A DNA stretch of 64,000 nucleotides from Escherichia phage vB_EcoM_NBG1: the sequence record MH243438.1. One strand, 5' to 3'. Each line of letters starts with the position of its first letter. Position 1 is the stretch's first letter. A model generated the notes under the pieces. The model searched no databases, was not told where the DNA came from, and saw only the letters and a program-made list of their open reading frames with translations. Shown here in pieces: positions 2,529 through 61,406 of the stretch. The translations under genes and the position numbers were made by a program.

Positions 2529-3629
2529 TTACGCTGTGAAGATTTTATCCCACATCGCAACAACTGCATCTCGATTATACTTCTTCCATACTGCTTCAGC
2601 ACGTTTAACTCGAGCTTCGTATGTGTCAGTGAATTCTAATACAGCTTTTGTGTAAAGCGCAACTACTTCTTTCTTAGGAGTAGAGGAATCAATTTCTACA
2701 CGCACAGTATCTGGGTCATATTCGAATGTCGCGTGCGGATAATCCTTAAAAACTAACTGAATCACAGGGACACCTTTAGAGATGGCTTCAATAGAACTAT
2801 TCTCTACCGTACCCGTGTCAGGACACGTATTAATAAGTGCTTTAGCTGTTTTAAGACGTTCCATGATTTCACTGTGTGGAGCATCAATAATAACAGGATA
2901 CTTAGCCGGTGGTGCCCATTTACTAGGACAGTATCCTACACCATTTTCGCCTAGTGCTTTAATCGCTTCAAGAGCAACATCAGTACGACGCATTTTAGTG
3001 TCATAACGTTGTGCACTAATAATCAGATCAGTCGCCGTAAGAACTTCAGGTTTATCATTCAAACAAATAACCGGATAATCTTCGGCTTCAAACAACGGAT
3101 TTGCTCGCCAATAATCATAATCAATTTTGTCAGTCAGACCTGAAGTCATATAACAATATTTGCGTTCAAATTCACGGAAGGCTTTAGTAGGAGCATAACT
3201 CTTACCACCGTTCTTATGAATTTGAATAGTCTGGTCCCAAATTTGAACAATGCCACGAGATACCGGTTCAAATGGTGTTGCCATAAAATTCTTATGAACT
3301 TTAGAGAGACCCGCGTCTTTAATTGCCTGAACGGTTAGTTTAGTCGGTTCCATAGTAACAACAAAATCATATTCATGGATGCCGGCTAGTTCAACAATCT
3401 TACGAGCCATAGTATAACTCATACCTAGACTGAATTTAGTCAGATGACCAACAGGATGATGATTAACCTTCCAATCACCAAATGTGTCATTATCAAAACC
3501 GATATAATCAATATCAGCACCGATGGACACAAGATATTTCAACACATTTAAATGTACTGCTTCAAGACCACCTTGTACACGTTCTGGGTTAAATGGGACT
3601 GCACGAGATGGGATAAACATAACTTTCAT
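2529..3629 (-). CDS. putative glycosyltransferase (candidate DNA hmC sugar transferase)
   Basis: 366-aa ORF; N-terminus MKVMFIPSRA..GGLE loosely resembles T4 alpha-glucosyltransferase start; sits in an insert between rIIA.1 and gene 39 that T4 lacks. Confidence 0.55.
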   Translation of the reverse strand: MKVMFIPSRAVPFNPERVQGGLEAVHLNVLKYLVSIGADIDYIGFDNDTFGDWKVNHHPVGHLTKFSLGMSYTMARKIVELAGIHEYDFVVTMEPTKLTVQAIKDAGLSKVHKNFMATPFEPVSRGIVQIWDQTIQIHKNGGKSYAPTKAFREFERKYCYMTSGLTDKIDYDYWRANPLFEAEDYPVICLNDKPEVLTATDLIISAQRYDTKMRRTDVALEAIKALGENGVGYCPSKWAPPAKYPVIIDAPHSEIMERLKTAKALINTCPDTGTVENSSIEAISKGVPVIQLVFKDYPHATFEYDPDTVRVEIDSSTPKKEVVALYTKAVLEFTDTYEARVKRAEAVWKKYNRDAVVAMWDKIFTA

Positions 3630-3654
3630 AATTAAGCCTTATTAAAATTAAAAT

Positions 3655-3674
3655 TAAGCTCCCGAAGGAGCTTA
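3655..3674 (-). terminator. UUCG-tetraloop stem-loop at end of gene 39 (possible terminator/RNA stability element)
   Basis: minus RNA AAGCUCC-UUCG-GGAGCUU followed by A/U-rich tract; overlaps gene 39 stop. Confidence 0.4.
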
Positions 3675-5489
3675 GGACATCCATTCTTTACGAAGTTCTG
3701 AATCATCACCCATCAACATTTCAAAGAGTTCTTTCCAATTTTCAGGAAGTTTAACTACGTCGTACACAGGGTTCTGAATCATTTCACGATATTCTGACTT
3801 TTCAAGGGAGCCCAATCCCTTGATGTATCGAATACTATGCTTAGGCAGTGTATCTTTAACTTCTTCATACTCAGCTACAGTATAAAACCATTTTTGAGTT
3901 TTGCCAATTTGTGCAATAATTACAGGCGTTTTAACAAAGCGAATACGTCCTTGTTCGAACAATTCAGGCCAATTACTAAAGAAAGCAAGCAAAGCCGGAT
4001 AGATACTTCCAAGACCGTCGTGATCTGCATCAGTCATAATTGCAATATTACGATAGTTCGTATTCTCTGCCTTTTCACCAAGAATAAGACCTGTGATAGC
4101 ACAGATATCAAAGAGCTCTTTGTTCTTCATCATATCAGCATATGACATACCCCAGCTATTCATCACCTTACCACGTAATGGGAATCCGCCGTGTAGTTCA
4201 CGGTCACGAACATCAATGAGATAACCAATTGCCGAATCACCTTCCGTTAAGAACAATGTCGTATCTGCATCTTTACCACATTGGTTAGCTTTAATATGCT
4301 TATGAACCTTAGCTTTAGTTGCCTTTTTAGCTGCTTTAGTTTCTGCAGCCTTTTCTGCCGCCAATTTACGAGCTAATGCTGCTTCAACAATAGGCATAAT
4401 CAAGGCTTCGTTTTTAAGAAGTGCCTGAGCAATTTTCTTAGCATCTAATTGGATATGATTACGAATATCACCATACGTTGACGTTAAACGTTCTTTAGTC
4501 TGAGAATCAAAACGCATGTTGCTCATGTCTCTAATAAACATCAACATTGTGAGGCATTCTTTAACACGAGCTTTAGTGACTTCAATACCCTTATATTTCT
4601 TTTTAATACCCGGTAAAAGATGTTCGCAGATATCATCCATTACACATTCAACATGATGACCACCATTTTTAGTATGGATGTTATTCACATAAGTTAAATG
4701 ACGGAAGCCATCTGGTGATGTTGTGAATGCTATAGAGACTTTATCATTTTCTTGAATGATGTTATCTTCACCAAATTGTTTAGCAAATCGTTTAAAATTA
4801 CCATCAACCTTTTTACCATTAAATGTGAACTTGATATCAGGATAAACGACTGCCAATGTTTGAAGTCGGTCTAAAGTAATATCTAAATAAATTTGAGATA
4901 AATTATGCTCTTCAAATGAAGAGAAATCAGGAGTGAAGATTACTTTAGTGCCTTTACCTTTAGATTTCTTAGAAGACCATGATTTGTTTTCCATTCCGTT
5001 TGAACAGTTAACAGTGATTTCATTTTCGCCATCTGACGTGATGCCTGTAAACAACGTAGAGAAGATATTAGTTAAACTACTCCCGACGCCGTTCATACCA
5101 CCAGTCTTGCGTTCAGAATCATCACCAAAGTTACCACCAGCCTTTGGAATAGTCCAGGCCGCTACAGGACCAGGAATTTGTTCACCTGTTTGGTCGGTAA
5201 CTAAACCTTGAGGAATACCACGTCCGTTATCTTCCACCGAAACTTGATTATTTTTAATTTGCACATCAATTTTATTTGCAAACTTAAATGATGTACGAAT
5301 AGCTTCATCAACCGAGTTGTCAATAATCTCATCGATTAATTTAACCAGACCAGGAACATATTCAACTTGTTGATATTTACCAAACAAAAAACGCTCATGT
5401 GCTTCTTTAGCAGAAGAACCAATATACATACCACTACGTTTCTTAATATGTTCTACATCTGACAATACCTTAATTTCATTTTTAATCAT
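3672..5489 (-). CDS. 39: DNA topoisomerase II large subunit (gene 39 fused with gene 60 region)
   Basis: 605-aa ORF; GHKL ATPase motifs EIIDNSVDEA, EDNGRGIP, GGMNGVGSS plus TOPRIM-like C-terminal part; single uninterrupted ORF. Confidence 0.9.
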   Translation of the reverse strand: MIKNEIKVLSDVEHIKKRSGMYIGSSAKEAHERFLFGKYQQVEYVPGLVKLIDEIIDNSVDEAIRTSFKFANKIDVQIKNNQVSVEDNGRGIPQGLVTDQTGEQIPGPVAAWTIPKAGGNFGDDSERKTGGMNGVGSSLTNIFSTLFTGITSDGENEITVNCSNGMENKSWSSKKSKGKGTKVIFTPDFSSFEEHNLSQIYLDITLDRLQTLAVVYPDIKFTFNGKKVDGNFKRFAKQFGEDNIIQENDKVSIAFTTSPDGFRHLTYVNNIHTKNGGHHVECVMDDICEHLLPGIKKKYKGIEVTKARVKECLTMLMFIRDMSNMRFDSQTKERLTSTYGDIRNHIQLDAKKIAQALLKNEALIMPIVEAALARKLAAEKAAETKAAKKATKAKVHKHIKANQCGKDADTTLFLTEGDSAIGYLIDVRDRELHGGFPLRGKVMNSWGMSYADMMKNKELFDICAITGLILGEKAENTNYRNIAIMTDADHDGLGSIYPALLAFFSNWPELFEQGRIRFVKTPVIIAQIGKTQKWFYTVAEYEEVKDTLPKHSIRYIKGLGSLEKSEYREMIQNPVYDVVKLPENWKELFEMLMGDDSELRKEWMS

Positions 5490-6001: not shown

Positions 6002-6181
6002 TTAACCCTTCTTAAGTAAGTCGTAAAAACCACCATTCACATGTTTAGGAGCAGAAACCCGACGAGTAGACAGACGATGACATTCAGGGCAAACATCGTT
6101 TTCTCGTTCAGAAATTCTTTTAATTTTTTCATATTCATGACCACAATCTTCAGATTGACATTTATAGTCGTATATCGGCAT
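6002..6181 (-). CDS. small zinc-ribbon protein (CxxC..CxxC)
   Basis: 59-aa ORF found by manual translation ([24 protein letters not shown]); ATG overlaps upstream stop as TAATG. Confidence 0.5.
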   Translation of the reverse strand: MPIYDYKCQSEDCGHEYEKIKRISERENDVCPECHRLSTRRVSAPKHVNGGFYDLLKKG

Positions 6182-6594
6182 TATTGTTCCTTAAAATGTG
6201 CTTTCAACATTTGATACAAAGACCATGCCTGGTCGTTATTTTCGATAGTAATTGTCATCACCGGAAATTCAGACAATTCGTCAAGTTCACCAGAATCTTG
6301 CTCTTCGGACGCTTGATATGGATTTCCAACTTCGTCAAAGAACTCTGCTTCATTCGTGGAGAGCCAGATAAAGTTTTCATCAAGGATATCACCGCCTGTT
6401 GCGTATCCAACCATACCAGTAGATGTCACAATTTTAGTAGGACGACCAAGATGGTCAACATCTAATACTTTAAATGGTTCCATGCCAAGACGACGTGCAT
6501 AAATCCCATTATCAGTGTGGTCTTTAATAAACTCTTCTTGGGCACGTTTATCTTTAAATTGGTACCATGAGTTAACGCGGAATTTATTAGCCAT
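6181..6594 (-). CDS. hypothetical protein
   Basis: 137 aa from ATG at 6594 (MANKFRVNS..), which overlaps upstream stop as TAATG; ORF-track start at 6612 is a TTG. Confidence 0.55.
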
Positions 6595-6821
6595 TAGTAA
6601 GTTTCCTTCCAATAAGTTGTACCATTTTCAGTGATTTCACGGAAGATACCATAGATAGGCATTTCGTCGCCGAGTTTTTCGTAAACGTAAACCACTTCGG
6701 TGTAGCATAAAAATTCGGTCCAGTTTTTCTGTACAACAACTAAATCAGGATTAAACAGAACATCTTCAAACTCATCGATGTTTGAATCAGTAGTTACGTT
6801 TTTAATGATTTGACGTTTCAT
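6594..6821 (-). CDS. hypothetical protein
   Basis: 75 aa from ATG at 6821 (MKRQIIKNV..) preceded by AGGAGA SD; ORF-track 5' extension would run into the promoter. Confidence 0.5.
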
Positions 6822-6849
6822 AATATTCTCCTCTTGTTTTGATAGGTCT

Positions 6850-6878
6850 ATAGTATCATAGACCATAGTTGTTGTACA
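6850..6878 (-). promoter_or_regulatory. early promoter (TGTACA-N17-TACTAT) with GGTCTAT/ATAGACC inverted repeat
   Basis: -10 at 6850-6855 and -35 at 6873-6878 read on minus strand. Confidence 0.45.
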
Positions 6879-7403
6879 TCATTTTAGCAAAATAAAATCA
6901 ACTTGTTCTGCCAATGAACGTCTAAACATTAATTGACAACTTCCGAGGATGAAATCAGGTGCTTCATAGACCGCGATGTAGTATCCTTTAGCTTTCAAGA
7001 GTTCAACATCCACCTGGTCATCAAACCATGCATAAACCGCGTCAACACTTTCAAATCCAAAATAGAACTCTTGAGCCCAATCTTCGTTCAATTCAAATGT
7101 GTGCTCAATTCTATAGTATCTTAAGATATTTTGTTCAAGGAGTTTGTCTTCATTTACTGTAGGACGATTAGGGACATTATAGTTGTCACCGTGATGGTAG
7201 AAGTTACCTGAGATTATCCCATGTTTATCAAGGAACTCCCATGTTTCTTCAGAGTTATCGGTGCCCGACCAACCGTATGGCGAACGAGGTTCTTTATTCC
7301 AAGAGGTTTCCCAAATTCTGACGGCTTTACCGTCTTCGATAGCAATTCCTGGTAATGATTCACGTTGAGTACAAAAACTACGTTCTACGCGGTAAACTAA
7401 CAT
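6879..7403 (-). CDS. hypothetical protein
   Basis: 174-aa ORF; SD AGGAGA lies inside a 13-bp inverted repeat with the upstream promoter spacer. Confidence 0.6.
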   Translation of the reverse strand: MLVYRVERSFCTQRESLPGIAIEDGKAVRIWETSWNKEPRSPYGWSGTDNSEETWEFLDKHGIISGNFYHHGDNYNVPNRPTVNEDKLLEQNILRYYRIEHTFELNEDWAQEFYFGFESVDAVYAWFDDQVDVELLKAKGYYIAVYEAPDFILGSCQLMFRRSLAEQVDFILLK

Positions 7404-12222: not shown

Positions 12223-12831
12223 TCAGTAACTGACAATAGACAGATTCCAGATTGTATAACGTCCATCCTGAATAATAGAATCTACACGCAGTGTAGTCCC
12301 TATAGGGAGCATAAATTCACATTCGTCAGATATAAGTCTAGCATTAGACCGTCTTGTCGCTTCAGGGAAAGCTCCATTGAACTCACAAGATGGCGCAGCC
12401 AGAATCATGTTAAGCATATGTTCACGGAAGTTGAAAGCAAATGGTGCATCTTTGATGCAGAACATATTAAATGTTCCGTAAAAATTATACGAAGCAAAGT
12501 TACGTGCTACACCGAACACTGGGCTGAAGCTCATTACTCTGTCAAATTTAATAATACTACCAATGCCTTTATCATCGAGTGTAGCCATAGTTTTCTTAGA
12601 GATTCCACGATACATTGTCTCAGGAACAGAAGACGTCCAATTTCTACGAACGATTGAACTTAACTCCTGTTGAATACAGTCTGGCTTGTTTTCCATACAC
12701 TGCCACAGTACACTTTGTTCAATGTCGCTGAATTGACTATCAATTTCGTACTGCAATACATCTTGATATTCGGGGTTTTGAGCACGACGAACCATTTCTT
12801 CAATTTCACACTCGTTATACGGCATAAACAT
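12223..12831 (-). CDS. modA: ADP-ribosyltransferase ModA-like
   Basis: 202 aa; R-S-E ART signature (ETMYRG, RVMSFSP, SDECEF); tandem paralog of next ORF; modA/modB order assumed from T4. Confidence 0.7.
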   Translation of the reverse strand: MFMPYNECEIEEMVRRAQNPEYQDVLQYEIDSQFSDIEQSVLWQCMENKPDCIQQELSSIVRRNWTSSVPETMYRGISKKTMATLDDKGIGSIIKFDRVMSFSPVFGVARNFASYNFYGTFNMFCIKDAPFAFNFREHMLNMILAAPSCEFNGAFPEATRRSNARLISDECEFMLPIGTTLRVDSIIQDGRYTIWNLSIVSY

Positions 12832-12888
12832 TTAGGTTTCTCCTGTGGTTGATAAAGGTATAGTATCATCGTTGGTAGAGTTTGTACA

Positions 12889-13470
12889 CTAAAAATTCAA
12901 CATTTTCAAATGAATGATTTTGTATAACCGAGATAAAGGGTCATATTCTAAGTCTTCAATTTCCACAATCTCAAATCTAGAGATACCTGAGACCATGTAC
13001 TCTTGTTCAGATTCAATCATATCTAGGACATCGATACGAGCTTCTTCCATAACATGCTTAGGGTTCTTTCCGGCGAGTACAATGTTAACCATGTTTTGGT
13101 AGTAATCAAAAATGAACGGAGCATTCCTGAGACTAAGAATAGTGTACGTCTGATATTCCCAACTCCCAGAGAATTGACGAGCTGTACTGAAATCAGTTGT
13201 GAACGATGTTACTCGTCCAGGAGACCAATGGCATCCAACAGAAAGAAGTGAAAGACGTTCTACTTCTTCTGGAGTTACACCACGGTAGAGTTCTACTGGT
13301 ACTGTAGAAGTCATATGCTTACGAACAAGATGGTCTAATTCATAGTGGAAATCCGGGTCTTCCTTAGAATCGGTGCAAGCCCAGAGAATGTTTTGTTCTT
13401 GGCGGGTGAATTTGCTATCAATCAGATTTGTTAGGTATTCACGTTCTTGAAGTTCAGATTGACATGTCAT
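12889..13470 (-). CDS. modB: ADP-ribosyltransferase ModB-like
   Basis: 193 aa; ART signature (VELYRG, RVTSFTTD, ESEQEY); paralog of previous ORF. Confidence 0.7.
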   Translation of the reverse strand: MTCQSELQEREYLTNLIDSKFTRQEQNILWACTDSKEDPDFHYELDHLVRKHMTSTVPVELYRGVTPEEVERLSLLSVGCHWSPGRVTSFTTDFSTARQFSGSWEYQTYTILSLRNAPFIFDYYQNMVNIVLAGKNPKHVMEEARIDVLDMIESEQEYMVSGISRFEIVEIEDLEYDPLSRLYKIIHLKMLNF

Positions 13471-17889: not shown

Positions 17890-18549
17890 TTAACCTCGAT
17901 TCATAAATGCATTAAATATTTGGTCATCAACAGAAATTTCTAATTCGACTTCAATTGCTTCAGCCTTTTCTTCAGGTGGTAATTCGTATCCACACACTAC
18001 AATTTTTTCATCGATATCAAAATATACAGAAGCAATACGATTAATGTTACTTTCAGTTAAGTCTAAATCAACATCAACATCTTTTTGACCTACACTTAAA
18101 GGATAACTAATACGGGTTATTTTATTATCTTTAACAAAGAGTCCACCAACATACTCTGTACTGCGTTTGAAGTTTACACGTTTCCGAATTGAAAGATATG
18201 ATACATCTTTACCGTGAGCTCGGCTCATAGGACATAATGAATAGCTAGAATAAGAGATGTCAAATCCTACACCTTCAATATGAGCCAACGTGTCATGATT
18301 AAACCAATTATAATCATATGCCAAATCCATTATATTGTAATATGTGAAAGGCACAGGATTAACATCATATGTTGTACCTTTAAAATCGGCCCAGGCAACG
18401 ATTTCGTTATCTTTAACAATTACAAAAATTACACCAATATGATATCCGTTATTATTTTCGTTCGGCGTTATATTATAACATTGTGCATTAGGAAATTTAC
18501 CATATTTAAATGGTGCGTTTTTGTGCATATAATAAATCATATTATTCAC
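17890..18549 (-). CDS. hypothetical protein (syntenic with T4 61.2 region)
   Basis: 219-aa ORF, AT-rich; precise start uncertain. Confidence 0.55.
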   Translation of the reverse strand: MNNMIYYMHKNAPFKYGKFPNAQCYNITPNENNNGYHIGVIFVIVKDNEIVAWADFKGTTYDVNPVPFTYYNIMDLAYDYNWFNHDTLAHIEGVGFDISYSSYSLCPMSRAHGKDVSYLSIRKRVNFKRSTEYVGGLFVKDNKITRISYPLSVGQKDVDVDLDLTESNINRIASVYFDIDEKIVVCGYELPPEEKAEAIEVELEISVDDQIFNAFMNRG

Positions 18550-59468: not shown

Positions 59469-59651
59469 TTATAGTGAATTCACGTAGTCAATGAGTTCTT
59501 GTTCTTTCCTGTCAAATGATTCCAACAATGCTTGATATTCTTCGTCCGTCAAAGGAGCATATTCATCATACGCATTGGTGGCTGCTTGCTCATCCAATAG
59601 GTCATGGATAAGTTCAAACAGTTTAGTTTTCTCTTCTTTAGTCAATTTCAT
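59469..59651 (-). CDS. hypothetical protein
   Basis: 60-aa acidic ORF. Confidence 0.5.
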   Translation of the reverse strand: MKLTKEEKTKLFELIHDLLDEQAATNAYDEYAPLTDEEYQALLESFDRKEQELIDYVNSL

Positions 59652-59875
59652 TTAGGTTCACCTTCTTTAACGAAATCTGGGTAAGGGTAAAATCCTGAGT
59701 AAAACCATTCACCTTTATGATTGCTACAACCTTTGTTCGAACAGTAACACCAATAATCAAAATCACAAGCCATTTCGTCATTGCATAAAGCAAAAACTAC
59801 AGGCCATTCGCATTTTTCGCATTTAGCACCTGTAAGAATTTTTGTTTGACTCATAGCCATGTCACCTTTAAGCAA
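59648..59875 (-). CDS. Cys-rich small protein (putative zinc-binding)
   Basis: 75 aa with 10 Cys (CEKCEW..CNDEMACDFDYWCYCSNKGC). Confidence 0.5.
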   Translation of the reverse strand: MLKGDMAMSQTKILTGAKCEKCEWPVVFALCNDEMACDFDYWCYCSNKGCSNHKGEWFYSGFYPYPDFVKEGEPK

Positions 59876-60078
59876 TATTCTTCTACATGTTGTTTACGGC
59901 CTTTCTTATCAATAAAGGTATATTCAACGAATGTTCCGATGTAGTCTTTATCTACATCATGTGGACTATTAATTGGACATTTAGTACGACAAATGCGTTC
60001 CCATTGACGAATAATTACTGCCTTATTCTTTGGATCGTATGGATGTGGATAATGTATATTCATAATAACGGTTCCCAA
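59851..60078 (-). CDS. hypothetical protein
   Basis: 75-aa ORF. Confidence 0.5.
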   Translation of the reverse strand: MGTVIMNIHYPHPYDPKNKAVIIRQWERICRTKCPINSPHDVDKDYIGTFVEYTFIDKKGRKQHVEEYCLKVTWL

Positions 60079-60557
60079 TCAACAATCACAATTTCTAGTT
60101 TAGTAGAATACGTATCTAAAATCTCTTCGATGACATCCCAGTTTCCACCACCAATACCTGCACCAATTCTTGGCATATAAATTACAGGCTTTGTTATCTT
60201 ATTCTTTCCGAATTCATTTAATTCTATTATACAATTCATTAAAGCAGAGTACTCAAAATTAGGTCCCGGCTCAAACTGTGTATAAAGATTAAAGCAATAA
60301 GCTTTATAGGTCTTAAAATATTTTTCATAAACCGAATAAGTCCCGAGTTTAGACTTGTCTCCGAATTCGGTTTGAAGTTTATCGGCTTCTAAAATTTTTG
60401 GATAAGCCTTTGCTAATTGGCCTGCTACACCGGCGCCCATTGTATGAAAACAATTACACCCATGAGCAATATTATTACCTTTAGAAAACAGGGCGACAAT
60501 ATCGCCCTTGATATAGTTTTTAATCACTTGCTGCAAGTCCTCTATTATAAGAGTCAA
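60060..60557 (-). CDS. macro domain protein (putative ADP-ribose binding/hydrolase)
   Basis: 165 aa; macro-domain signatures NNIAHGCNCFHTMGAGVAGQ and PRIGAGIGGG. Confidence 0.7.
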   Translation of the reverse strand: MTLIIEDLQQVIKNYIKGDIVALFSKGNNIAHGCNCFHTMGAGVAGQLAKAYPKILEADKLQTEFGDKSKLGTYSVYEKYFKTYKAYCFNLYTQFEPGPNFEYSALMNCIIELNEFGKNKITKPVIYMPRIGAGIGGGNWDVIEEILDTYSTKLEIVIVDWEPLL

Positions 60558-60867
60558 CTAGACGGTCCACCATAGAATTGCATGCTGCCTTATCTTTAGG
60601 TTCCGCCACTGAGCATTCTAATATTTGCCATTTTTTATAGTATCTTTTAATTAAGGTAGACGCCTTGAACCTACTAGACGCCCCATCTTTTTCTCCGTCT
60701 TTATACGCGTATAACAATTTTTGTGAAAAATCTACTTTACACTCTTGACTTTTACCACAATAATCAGACGCCGTTCTGTTTGTATACTCCGTTACATCAG
60801 TATATGTAGTATTAGCAAGAGCGTTAAATGAAACCAAGCTAACTATTAAAGCCAACATTTTGGTCAT
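60520..60867 (-). CDS. small secreted protein with 4 Cys (vs position)
   Basis: 115 aa; signal peptide MTKMLALIVSLVSFNALA. Confidence 0.55.
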   Translation of the reverse strand: MTKMLALIVSLVSFNALANTTYTDVTEYTNRTASDYCGKSQECKVDFSQKLLYAYKDGEKDGASSRFKASTLIKRYYKKWQILECSVAEPKDKAACNSMVDRLVDSYNRGLAASD

Positions 60868-61406
60868 TCTTTTATTTCCAGTAGTTTATTTGATTTAAGG
60901 TAATTAGCCTTTTCTAGGACTTCAGAAGCATATTTACTTCCAGCACTTGTCTTCCATCCCGCATTATATGAGGATATAGCTTTTCTTATATCCCCGTTAT
61001 GTATATTTAACCAATAAGAAAATTCGATATAAGCCCATCTGGCTGAATTAGACCGCTTAGATAGCATTTTCTTAATTTGGGCATCAGTCATATTATAACC
61101 AAGCTGGTTAATTCTTGCCCTCATTGTTGGTAGATAATTTTGGAACATTCCATACGCATGGTGACCTTTCTTATCTTTAAGATTAATACCGGCAGATGAT
61201 TCCTGCCATAGTATTGCGGCCATTATGTATCCAAGTCCTTTCTTATGCATATTTTCATGCGTTTTAAATTTTCCGTCCTTAGAAAACTGTTCCCCAAACT
61301 GATAAGCATAATTCAAGTTATCGAGTTGGACATTACTAAAAGTATGCTCGGAGCTATGTGCTGATAACGAAAGAGCAAATAGACCAGCGAGTAGTGCTTT
61401 TCTCAT
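60864..61406 (-). CDS. secreted lytic transglycosylase (SLT domain)
   Basis: 180 aa; signal peptide; SLT motifs LWQESS, AYGMFQ, SYNAG. Confidence 0.7.
   Translation of the reverse strand: MRKALLAGLFALSLSAHSSEHTFSNVQLDNLNYAYQFGEQFSKDGKFKTHENMHKKGLGYIMAAILWQESSAGINLKDKKGHHAYGMFQNYLPTMRARINQLGYNMTDAQIKKMLSKRSNSARWAYIEFSYWLNIHNGDIRKAISSYNAGWKTSAGSKYASEVLEKANYLKSNKLLEIKE

Follow-up and report, generated by a model that had tools for sequence, protein, structure and literature searches.

The tk.4 gene of Escherichia phage vB_EcoM_NBG1 (sequence record MH243438.1) probably encodes the Mosigvirus version of AdfM, an orphan antitoxin that would hydrolyze the thymine-N3-ribose bond made by the host toxin DarT2, with an active site of the SCO6735/BT1257 type. 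The gene occupies positions 60060..60527 (minus strand) of the window, i.e., the whole 64,000-nucleotide stretch of DNA that was analyzed, and specifies a stand-alone macrodomain of 155 aa that starts with GTG. The basis for this model in the present analysis is the fold of the protein, its orthology and synteny, and the residue pattern of its active site. The anti-DarTG2 role of tk.4 is already known from the T4 orthologue, and by inference the NBG1 protein would be an enzyme acting on dT-ADP-ribose DNA.

The tk.4 Gene in NBG1 and Related Phages

The 2.1-kb stretch around tk.4 shares 99.0-99.6% identity with many Mosigvirus genomes (including JK36, mar005P1-like, vB_Eco_F31, and AV115), and the source phage is a Mosigvirus, i.e., a T4-like phage of the RB69 type. 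The tk.4 protein is 84% identical to T4 Tk.4 (130/155 residues, ungapped) and 98% identical to RB69 Tk.4 (150/153 residues). Additionally, the gene order of the window (regB, vs.1, vs, tk.4, small ORFs, tk) is the same in T4 and RB69. Protein identity and gene order identify it as the syntenic orthologue of T4/RB69 tk.4.

The longest mechanical ORF at this locus spans 60060..60557 (minus strand) and encodes 165 aa from a TTG start. This ORF, which the original prediction took as the gene, is real and contains both of the macrodomain motifs quoted for it, but the start coordinate lies 30 nt too far upstream. The start was reassigned from orthologous loci and from the JK36 annotation. Specifically, the in-frame upstream extension (60528..60557, minus strand, with its TTG at 60557), which falls inside the 3' end of vs, is probably not translated, because four orthologous loci carry in-frame stops there and an ATG at the position of the window GTG. 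The orthologue ATG aligns exactly with the GTG at 60527 in T4, Shigella phage Sf21, Enterobacter phage vB_EluP_RZH, and Klebsiella phage Roth76. Moreover, the 155-aa form is annotated in the near-identical JK36 record, Tk.4 is 155 aa long in T4 and 154 aa long in RB69, and a Shine-Dalgarno-like GAGGA motif (60538..60542, minus strand) precedes the GTG start by 10 nt, within the terminal part of vs and at the same place as in T4. Together with the orthologous ATG positions and the upstream stops, these observations place tk.4 at 60060..60527.

Tight gene packing is typical of T4 early gene blocks, and tk.4 overlaps both of its neighbors. Upstream, the stop of the valyl-tRNA synthetase modifier gene vs (60520..60867, minus strand; PHROG 1256, 3.3e-35, and synteny with T4 and RB69) and the start of tk.4 share an overlap of 8 nt. 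Downstream, the TGA of tk.4 overlaps the ATG (60063) of a DUF7202 gene (59851..60063, minus strand; Pfam PF23832, 2.1e-38, and JK36 annotation), forming ATGA at 60060-60063. Between 58800 and 62300, promoter-like sites show no excess (9, compared with 11.8±4.2 in shuffled sequence), and the total of terminator-like sites (4, compared with 2.3±1.7) is not above the shuffled expectation. A terminator-like hairpin located within tk.4 codons 7-13 (60490-60508, minus strand; 8-bp stem with 5 G-C pairs, followed by GTTTTCT) may be a chance occurrence, since the regional count of such sites does not exceed that expectation.

The annotation of this region is uneven. In T4 and RB69, tk.4 is annotated as "contains A1pp phosphatase motif," and its labels in Mosigvirus records vary between "macro domain protein," "Poa1p_like family," "phosphatase," and "hypothetical protein." The labels "phosphatase" and "hypothetical protein" should be corrected to anti-DarT2 macrodomain, with the corrected start codon. 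Between tk.2 and tk.4, the window carries two small genes (59648-60063, minus strand) that encode Phage_zn_bind (PF23895) and DUF7202 (PF23832) proteins. RB69, which has two small genes fewer than NBG1 in this interval, lacks both of them, and tk.2 directly abuts tk.4 (RB69 record, 3317-3960). The presence or absence of these genes is an indel between Mosigvirus genomes that are nearly identical elsewhere. The label "endoribonuclease" is given in the JK36 record to the vs.1 homologue and to several further small genes (3965-4507, 5031-5330, 6179-7023). The vs.1 homologue of the window (60864-61406) shows a weak match to SLT transglycosylase (E=1.3e-3, below the Pfam cut-off) and falls in PHROG 600, which is of "unknown function." The JK36 labels look like a misannotation that spread from the neighboring regB.

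A Macrodomain of the ALC1/TARG1/DarG-Like Class

The original macrodomain call is borne out by Pfam Macro (PF01661; 28.5 bits against a gathering cut-off of 22, E=1.6e-6, profile positions 2-117/118), by PHROG 335 (3.8e-66), by matches to solved macrodomains, and by a confident AlphaFold2 model. Among the solved macrodomains, BT1257 (1.4e-10), Poa1p (2.3e-8), and SCO6735 (5E3B; 6.5e-5) are matched from sequence only, and the TARG1 and DarG macrodomains match at about 1e-3. The AlphaFold2 model, which was built with 75 homologues (mean pLDDT 95.8, pTM 0.91), shows a three-layer α/β/α macro fold, and its nearest structural neighbors (top Foldseek matches) are TARG1, DarG, Poa1p, and BT1257/SCO6735, not macrodomains of the MacroD, viral, or PARG types. 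The tk.4 protein is a macrodomain of the ALC1/TARG1/DarG-like class. It also retains the glycine-rich loops M30-G-A-G-V-A-G36 and P119-R-I-G-A-G-I-G-G-G128, and ADP-ribose binding is predicted from the conservation of just these loops.

A Glutamine in Place of the Catalytic Lysine

The position of the catalytic lysine in TARG1 (K84) and DarG (K80) is occupied by Gln84 in the tk.4 protein (codon 60276..60278, minus strand). This placement was obtained with hhalign against TARG1 and M. tuberculosis DarG, with an HMM alignment to BT1257, and from the SCO6735 numbering; the reference sequences of M. tuberculosis DarG and Poa1p match the deposited PDB chains exactly. In the profile-profile alignment, the "N-L-Y-T-Q" strand of the Tk.4 type lies on "Y-L-I-T-K" of TARG1 and "N-F-P-T-K" of DarG, and D125 of TARG1 aligns with Gly126 of the tk.4 protein. 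The Lys-to-Gln replacement is common to the tk.4 protein and its closest solved relatives, SCO6735 of S. coelicolor and BT1257 of Bacteroides, and Gln84 is the equivalent of the essential Gln85 of SCO6735. When mapped via the 5E3B chain (offset of 20 residues), V25/N27/Q85/G126/G128 of SCO6735 correspond to G23/N25/Q84/G122/G124 of the window protein. Thus numbered, Asn25 (codon 60453..60455, minus strand) is the counterpart of the active-site Asn of SCO6735 (Asn27), DarG (Asn22), and PhiKZ AdfM (Asn23), which is required for activity (PMC9411070, PMC13309987), and the second glycine-rich loop (60144..60173, minus strand) is the counterpart of the diphosphate-binding loop of SCO6735, in which G122 and G124 match Gly126 and Gly128.

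SCO6735 removes ADP-ribose from DNA thymidine but not from guanosine, does so faster than DarG or TARG1, and rescues E. coli from DarT (PMC9411070). Its activity is lost completely in the Q85A mutant, nearly completely in N27S, and partially upon mutation of G128 (PMC9411070). The conservation of these positions in the Tk.4 type was assessed in a set of 262 homologues aligned with hmmalign, which was drawn from a word-indexed search (120 sequences) and an exhaustive HMM search (150 cluster representatives), with partial overlap between the two. Gln84, Asp49, and Tyr82 are present in all 262 homologues, Asn25, Cys26, and Asn80 in 261/262, Gly124 in 260/262, and His22 in 253/262; in the second loop, P119, G122, and G124 are invariant or, as in the case of G124, almost so. 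The invariance of the residues that are key to a Gln-type enzyme supports, by analogy with SCO6735, a dT-ADP-ribose glycohydrolase in which an activated water and the positioning of the substrate would take the place of a lysine. Since the T4-type AdfM lacks the lysine of DarG and TARG1 and resembles SCO6735, the chemistry of DarG should not simply be transferred to it.

Additional residues set the Tk.4 type apart. D49, Y82, and C26 are invariant or nearly so, and K/R60 is near-invariant, among the 262 homologues, and none of them has a counterpart in SCO6735 or DarG. At position 49, where the Tk.4 type has Asp, most of SCO6735, BT1257, DarG, and TARG1 have an aromatic residue. To judge from this residue pattern, D49, K60, Y82, and C26 could mark a distinct substrate preference or range. 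It is conceivable, although rather unlikely, that Tk.4-type macrodomains constitute a mechanistically distinct nucleic-acid de-ADP-ribosylase whose substrate range is wider than, or different from, that of DarG; the targets might then also include, e.g., uracil-linked ADP-ribose on RNA or DarT-like toxins yet uncharacterized, and the type would be more than a plain copy of DarG.

Anti-DarTG2 Role and Proposed Mechanism

Genetic evidence for the role of tk.4 comes from a HIDEN-SEQ preprint of November 2025, in which a T4 transposon library was grown on a DarTG2-expressing host and tk.4 emerged as the single significant hit (10.1101/2025.11.20.689424). A clean T4 tk.4 knockout is DarTG2-sensitive, and the gene was renamed adfM (anti-DarT factor Macrodomain); its authors remarked on the structural similarity of the product to M. 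tuberculosis DarG and proposed that AdfM takes ADP-ribose off DNA (10.1101/2025.11.20.689424). The knockout result fits with the earlier observation that the loss of adfA together with adfN leaves the DarTG2 resistance of T4 fully intact (PMC11825919). The suggestion that the macrodomain reverses host DarT-type ADP-ribosylation of DNA had therefore already been reported for the 84%-identical T4 orthologue, and the experiment suggested along with it, infection of DarTG hosts with a deletion mutant, has been carried out by others on that orthologue, the mutant being sensitive to DarTG2 (10.1101/2025.11.20.689424).

The host DarT2 toxin ADP-ribosylates thymidines in single-stranded phage DNA and thereby blocks replication. 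In the mechanism proposed here, the Tk.4 macrodomain would bind the ADP-ribose and hydrolyze the thymine-N3-ribose bond, restoring normal DNA. In this reaction Gln84, held by Asn25, would replace the catalytic lysine, with catalysis proceeding via positioning of the substrate and an activated water. AdfM adds one more case of T-even phages stacking anti-DarT factors (AdfA, AdfN, and AdfM), and such stacking explains the resistance of these phages to DarTG systems.

A second anti-DarT gene is present in the window. The adfA (gp61.2) homologue, located with tblastn using T4 gp61.2, lies at 17890..18528 (minus strand); its product is identical to RB69 gp61.2 at 209/212 residues and carries Arg at position 164. 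The Arg164 allele of AdfA reportedly does not neutralize E. coli DarT1; the T4 residue is His, and the R164H mutation allows RB69 to escape DarTG1 (PMC11825919). Should gene 30.3 of NBG1 (adfN), which the window does not include, be defective as well, like that of RB69, NBG1 would be sensitive to DarTG1 and resistant to DarTG2.

The ADP-Ribosyltransferases of the Phage

Two ModA/ModB-like ADP-ribosyltransferases (ARTs) at 12223-13470 had been part of the original prediction, and they are real: two tandem genes of the ModA/ModB family (12223-12831 and 12889-13470, minus strand) match PHROG 832 at about 1e-37 each and, by BLASTP, are 31% (first ORF) and 38% (second ORF) identical to T4 ModB. The first ORF is also 30% identical to T4 ModA, and the second yields no BLASTP match to ModA. 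Both show the R, S, and E-x-E motifs and are closer to ModB than to ModA. No Pfam model detects either ORF, and the genes adjoin srd, as in T4. The T4 enzymes Alt, ModA, and ModB modify arginine.

The phylogenetic reach of the two families differs. Searches with tblastn gave 2800 phage records for the macro family, among them 183 from Pseudomonas, 134 from Vibrio, 94 from Acinetobacter, and 86 from Aeromonas phages, and only 1080 for Mod-type ARTs, mostly of enterobacterial T4-like phages; Pseudomonas, Vibrio, Acinetobacter, and Aeromonas phages are absent from the ten commonest organism names for the Mod-type ART.

Alternative Explanations

Protection against DarT2 could be mainly non-catalytic, with the tk.4 protein acting as a stoichiometric inhibitor that binds the toxin or sequesters ADP-ribosylated DNA. 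The catalytically dead Q85A mutant of SCO6735 still inhibits DarT in vitro, and more so than DarG K80A or TARG1 K84A (PMC9411070), other phage factors (AdfA and AdfB) act through toxin binding (PMC11825919), and the absence of the DarG catalytic Lys from the tk.4 protein would suit such a role. Nevertheless, the residues of the ADP-ribose site (N25, Q84, G122, G124, and G31/G33) vary little or not at all among 262 very diverse homologues, as would be expected for an enzyme rather than for a binder of one fast-evolving toxin. Moreover, the tk.4 protein lacks the C-terminal domain with which DarG binds DarT, and PhiKZ AdfM, the tested phage macrodomain, works as an enzyme (PMC13309987). A mainly non-catalytic protection is therefore improbable. 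Another possibility is that the protein is a metabolite enzyme without action on DNA, i.e., a Poa1p-like ADP-ribose-1''-phosphate phosphatase or an O-acetyl-ADP-ribose deacetylase. His22 and Thr29 of the tk.4 protein indeed align with H23 and S30 of Poa1p, residues that were probed, together with F152, by Poa1p mutant structures, but position 29 is Thr in just 147/262 homologues, Phe152 of Poa1p corresponds to Gly/Ala126 in the Tk.4 type, and Poa1p has a Ser where the Tk.4 type has its invariant Gln84. The "phosphatase" label itself derives from the Poa1p/A1pp domain name and not from assays. Additionally, Appr-1''-p is a product of tRNA splicing of the Tpt1 type, a route that T4-type RNA repair does not include, and a phosphatase is further disfavored on this account. 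With DarTG2 sensitivity as the sole phenotype described in the preprint for T4 tk.4 (10.1101/2025.11.20.689424), a purely metabolic role is even less probable than a non-catalytic one.

The original prediction had also offered that the macrodomain tunes the ART activity of the phage, in which case Tk.4 would erase or read the ADP-ribosylation made by Alt/ModA/ModB-type transferases on host proteins or RNA. This is compatible with the two ModA/ModB-family ARTs encoded in the same genome and with the existence of at least one macrodomain specific for arginine-ADP-ribose, Legionella MavL, which is cited in PMC13036486. However, the ART genes lie 47 kb from tk.4 in different gene blocks and are not co-organized with it, and the distribution of the two families among phages is unequal (2800 records for the macro family against 1080). 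The linkage is mismatched as well: the TARG1/DarG/SCO6735 class acts on Glu/Asp-linked and thymine/uracil-linked ADP-ribose, and arginine-linked ADP-ribose is not among the substrates described for TARG1 and SCO6735 (PMC9411070, PMC13036486). Furthermore, in the T4 screen tk.4 was a hit specifically when DarTG2 was present (10.1101/2025.11.20.689424). The tuning of the phage's own ARTs is thus unsupported and very improbable.

Family Size and Genomic Surroundings

An exhaustive HMM search retrieved 18,239 cluster representatives (50% identity) at E<=1e-3, of which 8,937 reached E<=1e-10 and 1,186 reached E<=1e-30, and the Tk.4-type macrodomains are a very large, mostly phage-borne clade. A bacterial toxin-antitoxin origin was sought through the contigs of two bacterial-looking homologues, one from a Nitrospirae MAG (P0113) and one of 246 aa (P0120). 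Small ORFs without annotation and an SLT gene give both contigs a phage-like look, and the Pfam families recorded for the neighbors on them include no ADP-ribosyltransferase or DarT; these surroundings are uninformative on the origin.

Comparison with Known Macrodomains and Anti-DarT Factors

The Tk.4 proteins of T4 and RB69 are encoded by the same gene as the one described here, with identity over the full length and a position between vs and the tk.x genes. T4 Tk.4 differs in the second loop, which reads "GIGKG" instead of "GIGGG," and in its ATG start, the NBG1 gene starting with GTG. Among solved macrodomains, SCO6735 and BT1257 (PDB 5E3B and 2FG1/2AFC) share with the tk.4 protein the Gln at the Lys position, the Asn (Q85 and N27), and the phosphate-loop Gly (G128), which are Q84, N25, and G124 in NBG1. 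Nevertheless, BT1257 is only about 28% identical to the tk.4 protein, and SCO6735 and BT1257 are chromosomal, whereas Tk.4 is phage-borne and has its own invariant D49, Y82, and C26. Another difference concerns the mobile loop, which in SCO6735 is five residues longer than in DarG/TARG1 and carries the DNA-binding Lys89. The Tk.4 type is devoid of this long loop: in the HMM alignment, the segment after Gln84 is about 6 residues shorter than in BT1257 and contains no equivalent of Lys89.

DarG is a further point of reference. The DarG profile of PADLOC (PDLC02990) matches the tk.4 protein with E=2.2e-8, in the macro part only (positions 4-145/329), and the DarG2 macrodomains of T. aquaticus (5M31/5M3E) and M. 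tuberculosis (5M3I) are 21-22% identical to it, with Gln84 in place of Lys80 of the "PTK" motif. DarG2 has a C-terminal DarT-binding domain that is missing from the 155-aa tk.4 protein, and no darT gene adjoins tk.4, whose neighbors are vs and the small DUF7202/zinc-binding genes. Membership in the DarG family is ruled out by the lack of this C-terminal domain, of an adjacent darT, and of the catalytic lysine, and for the same reasons the tk.4 protein is best described as an orphan antitoxin-like macrodomain.

A similar case is gp104 of phage PhiKZ, also named AdfM, which in vitro removes DarT2-made ADP-ribose from DNA and requires its conserved Asn to do so (Cell Rep 2026, PMC13309987). Like Tk.4, it is a stand-alone phage macrodomain directed against DarTG2, but it is 20% identical to the tk.4 protein and retains the DarG-type "FPTK" lysine, which places it in a different subfamily. 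The two AdfMs presumably do the same job from different subfamilies, and on the sequence comparison the T4-type and PhiKZ proteins appear as two independent acquisitions. The name AdfM was given independently in two papers to the Gln-type T4 Tk.4 and to the Lys-type PhiKZ gp104, and the shared name is likely to cause confusion in future annotation.

Human TARG1/OARD1 and yeast Poa1p have the same ALC1-like fold as the tk.4 protein (top Foldseek matches). TARG1 also takes off thymine-linked ADP-ribose (PMC8501950, PMC9411070); its K84/D125 dyad contrasts with Q84/G126 in the tk.4 protein. In Poa1p, position 84 is a Ser, and there is a long insertion that is absent from the tk.4 protein. Lastly, AdfN (T4 gp30.3, NADAR) and AdfA (gp61.2) are, like AdfM, anti-DarT factors of T-even phages, but their folds are unrelated: AdfN acts only against DarT1, whose ADP-ribosylation of guanosine it reverses, and AdfA works by binding to the toxin (PMC11825919).
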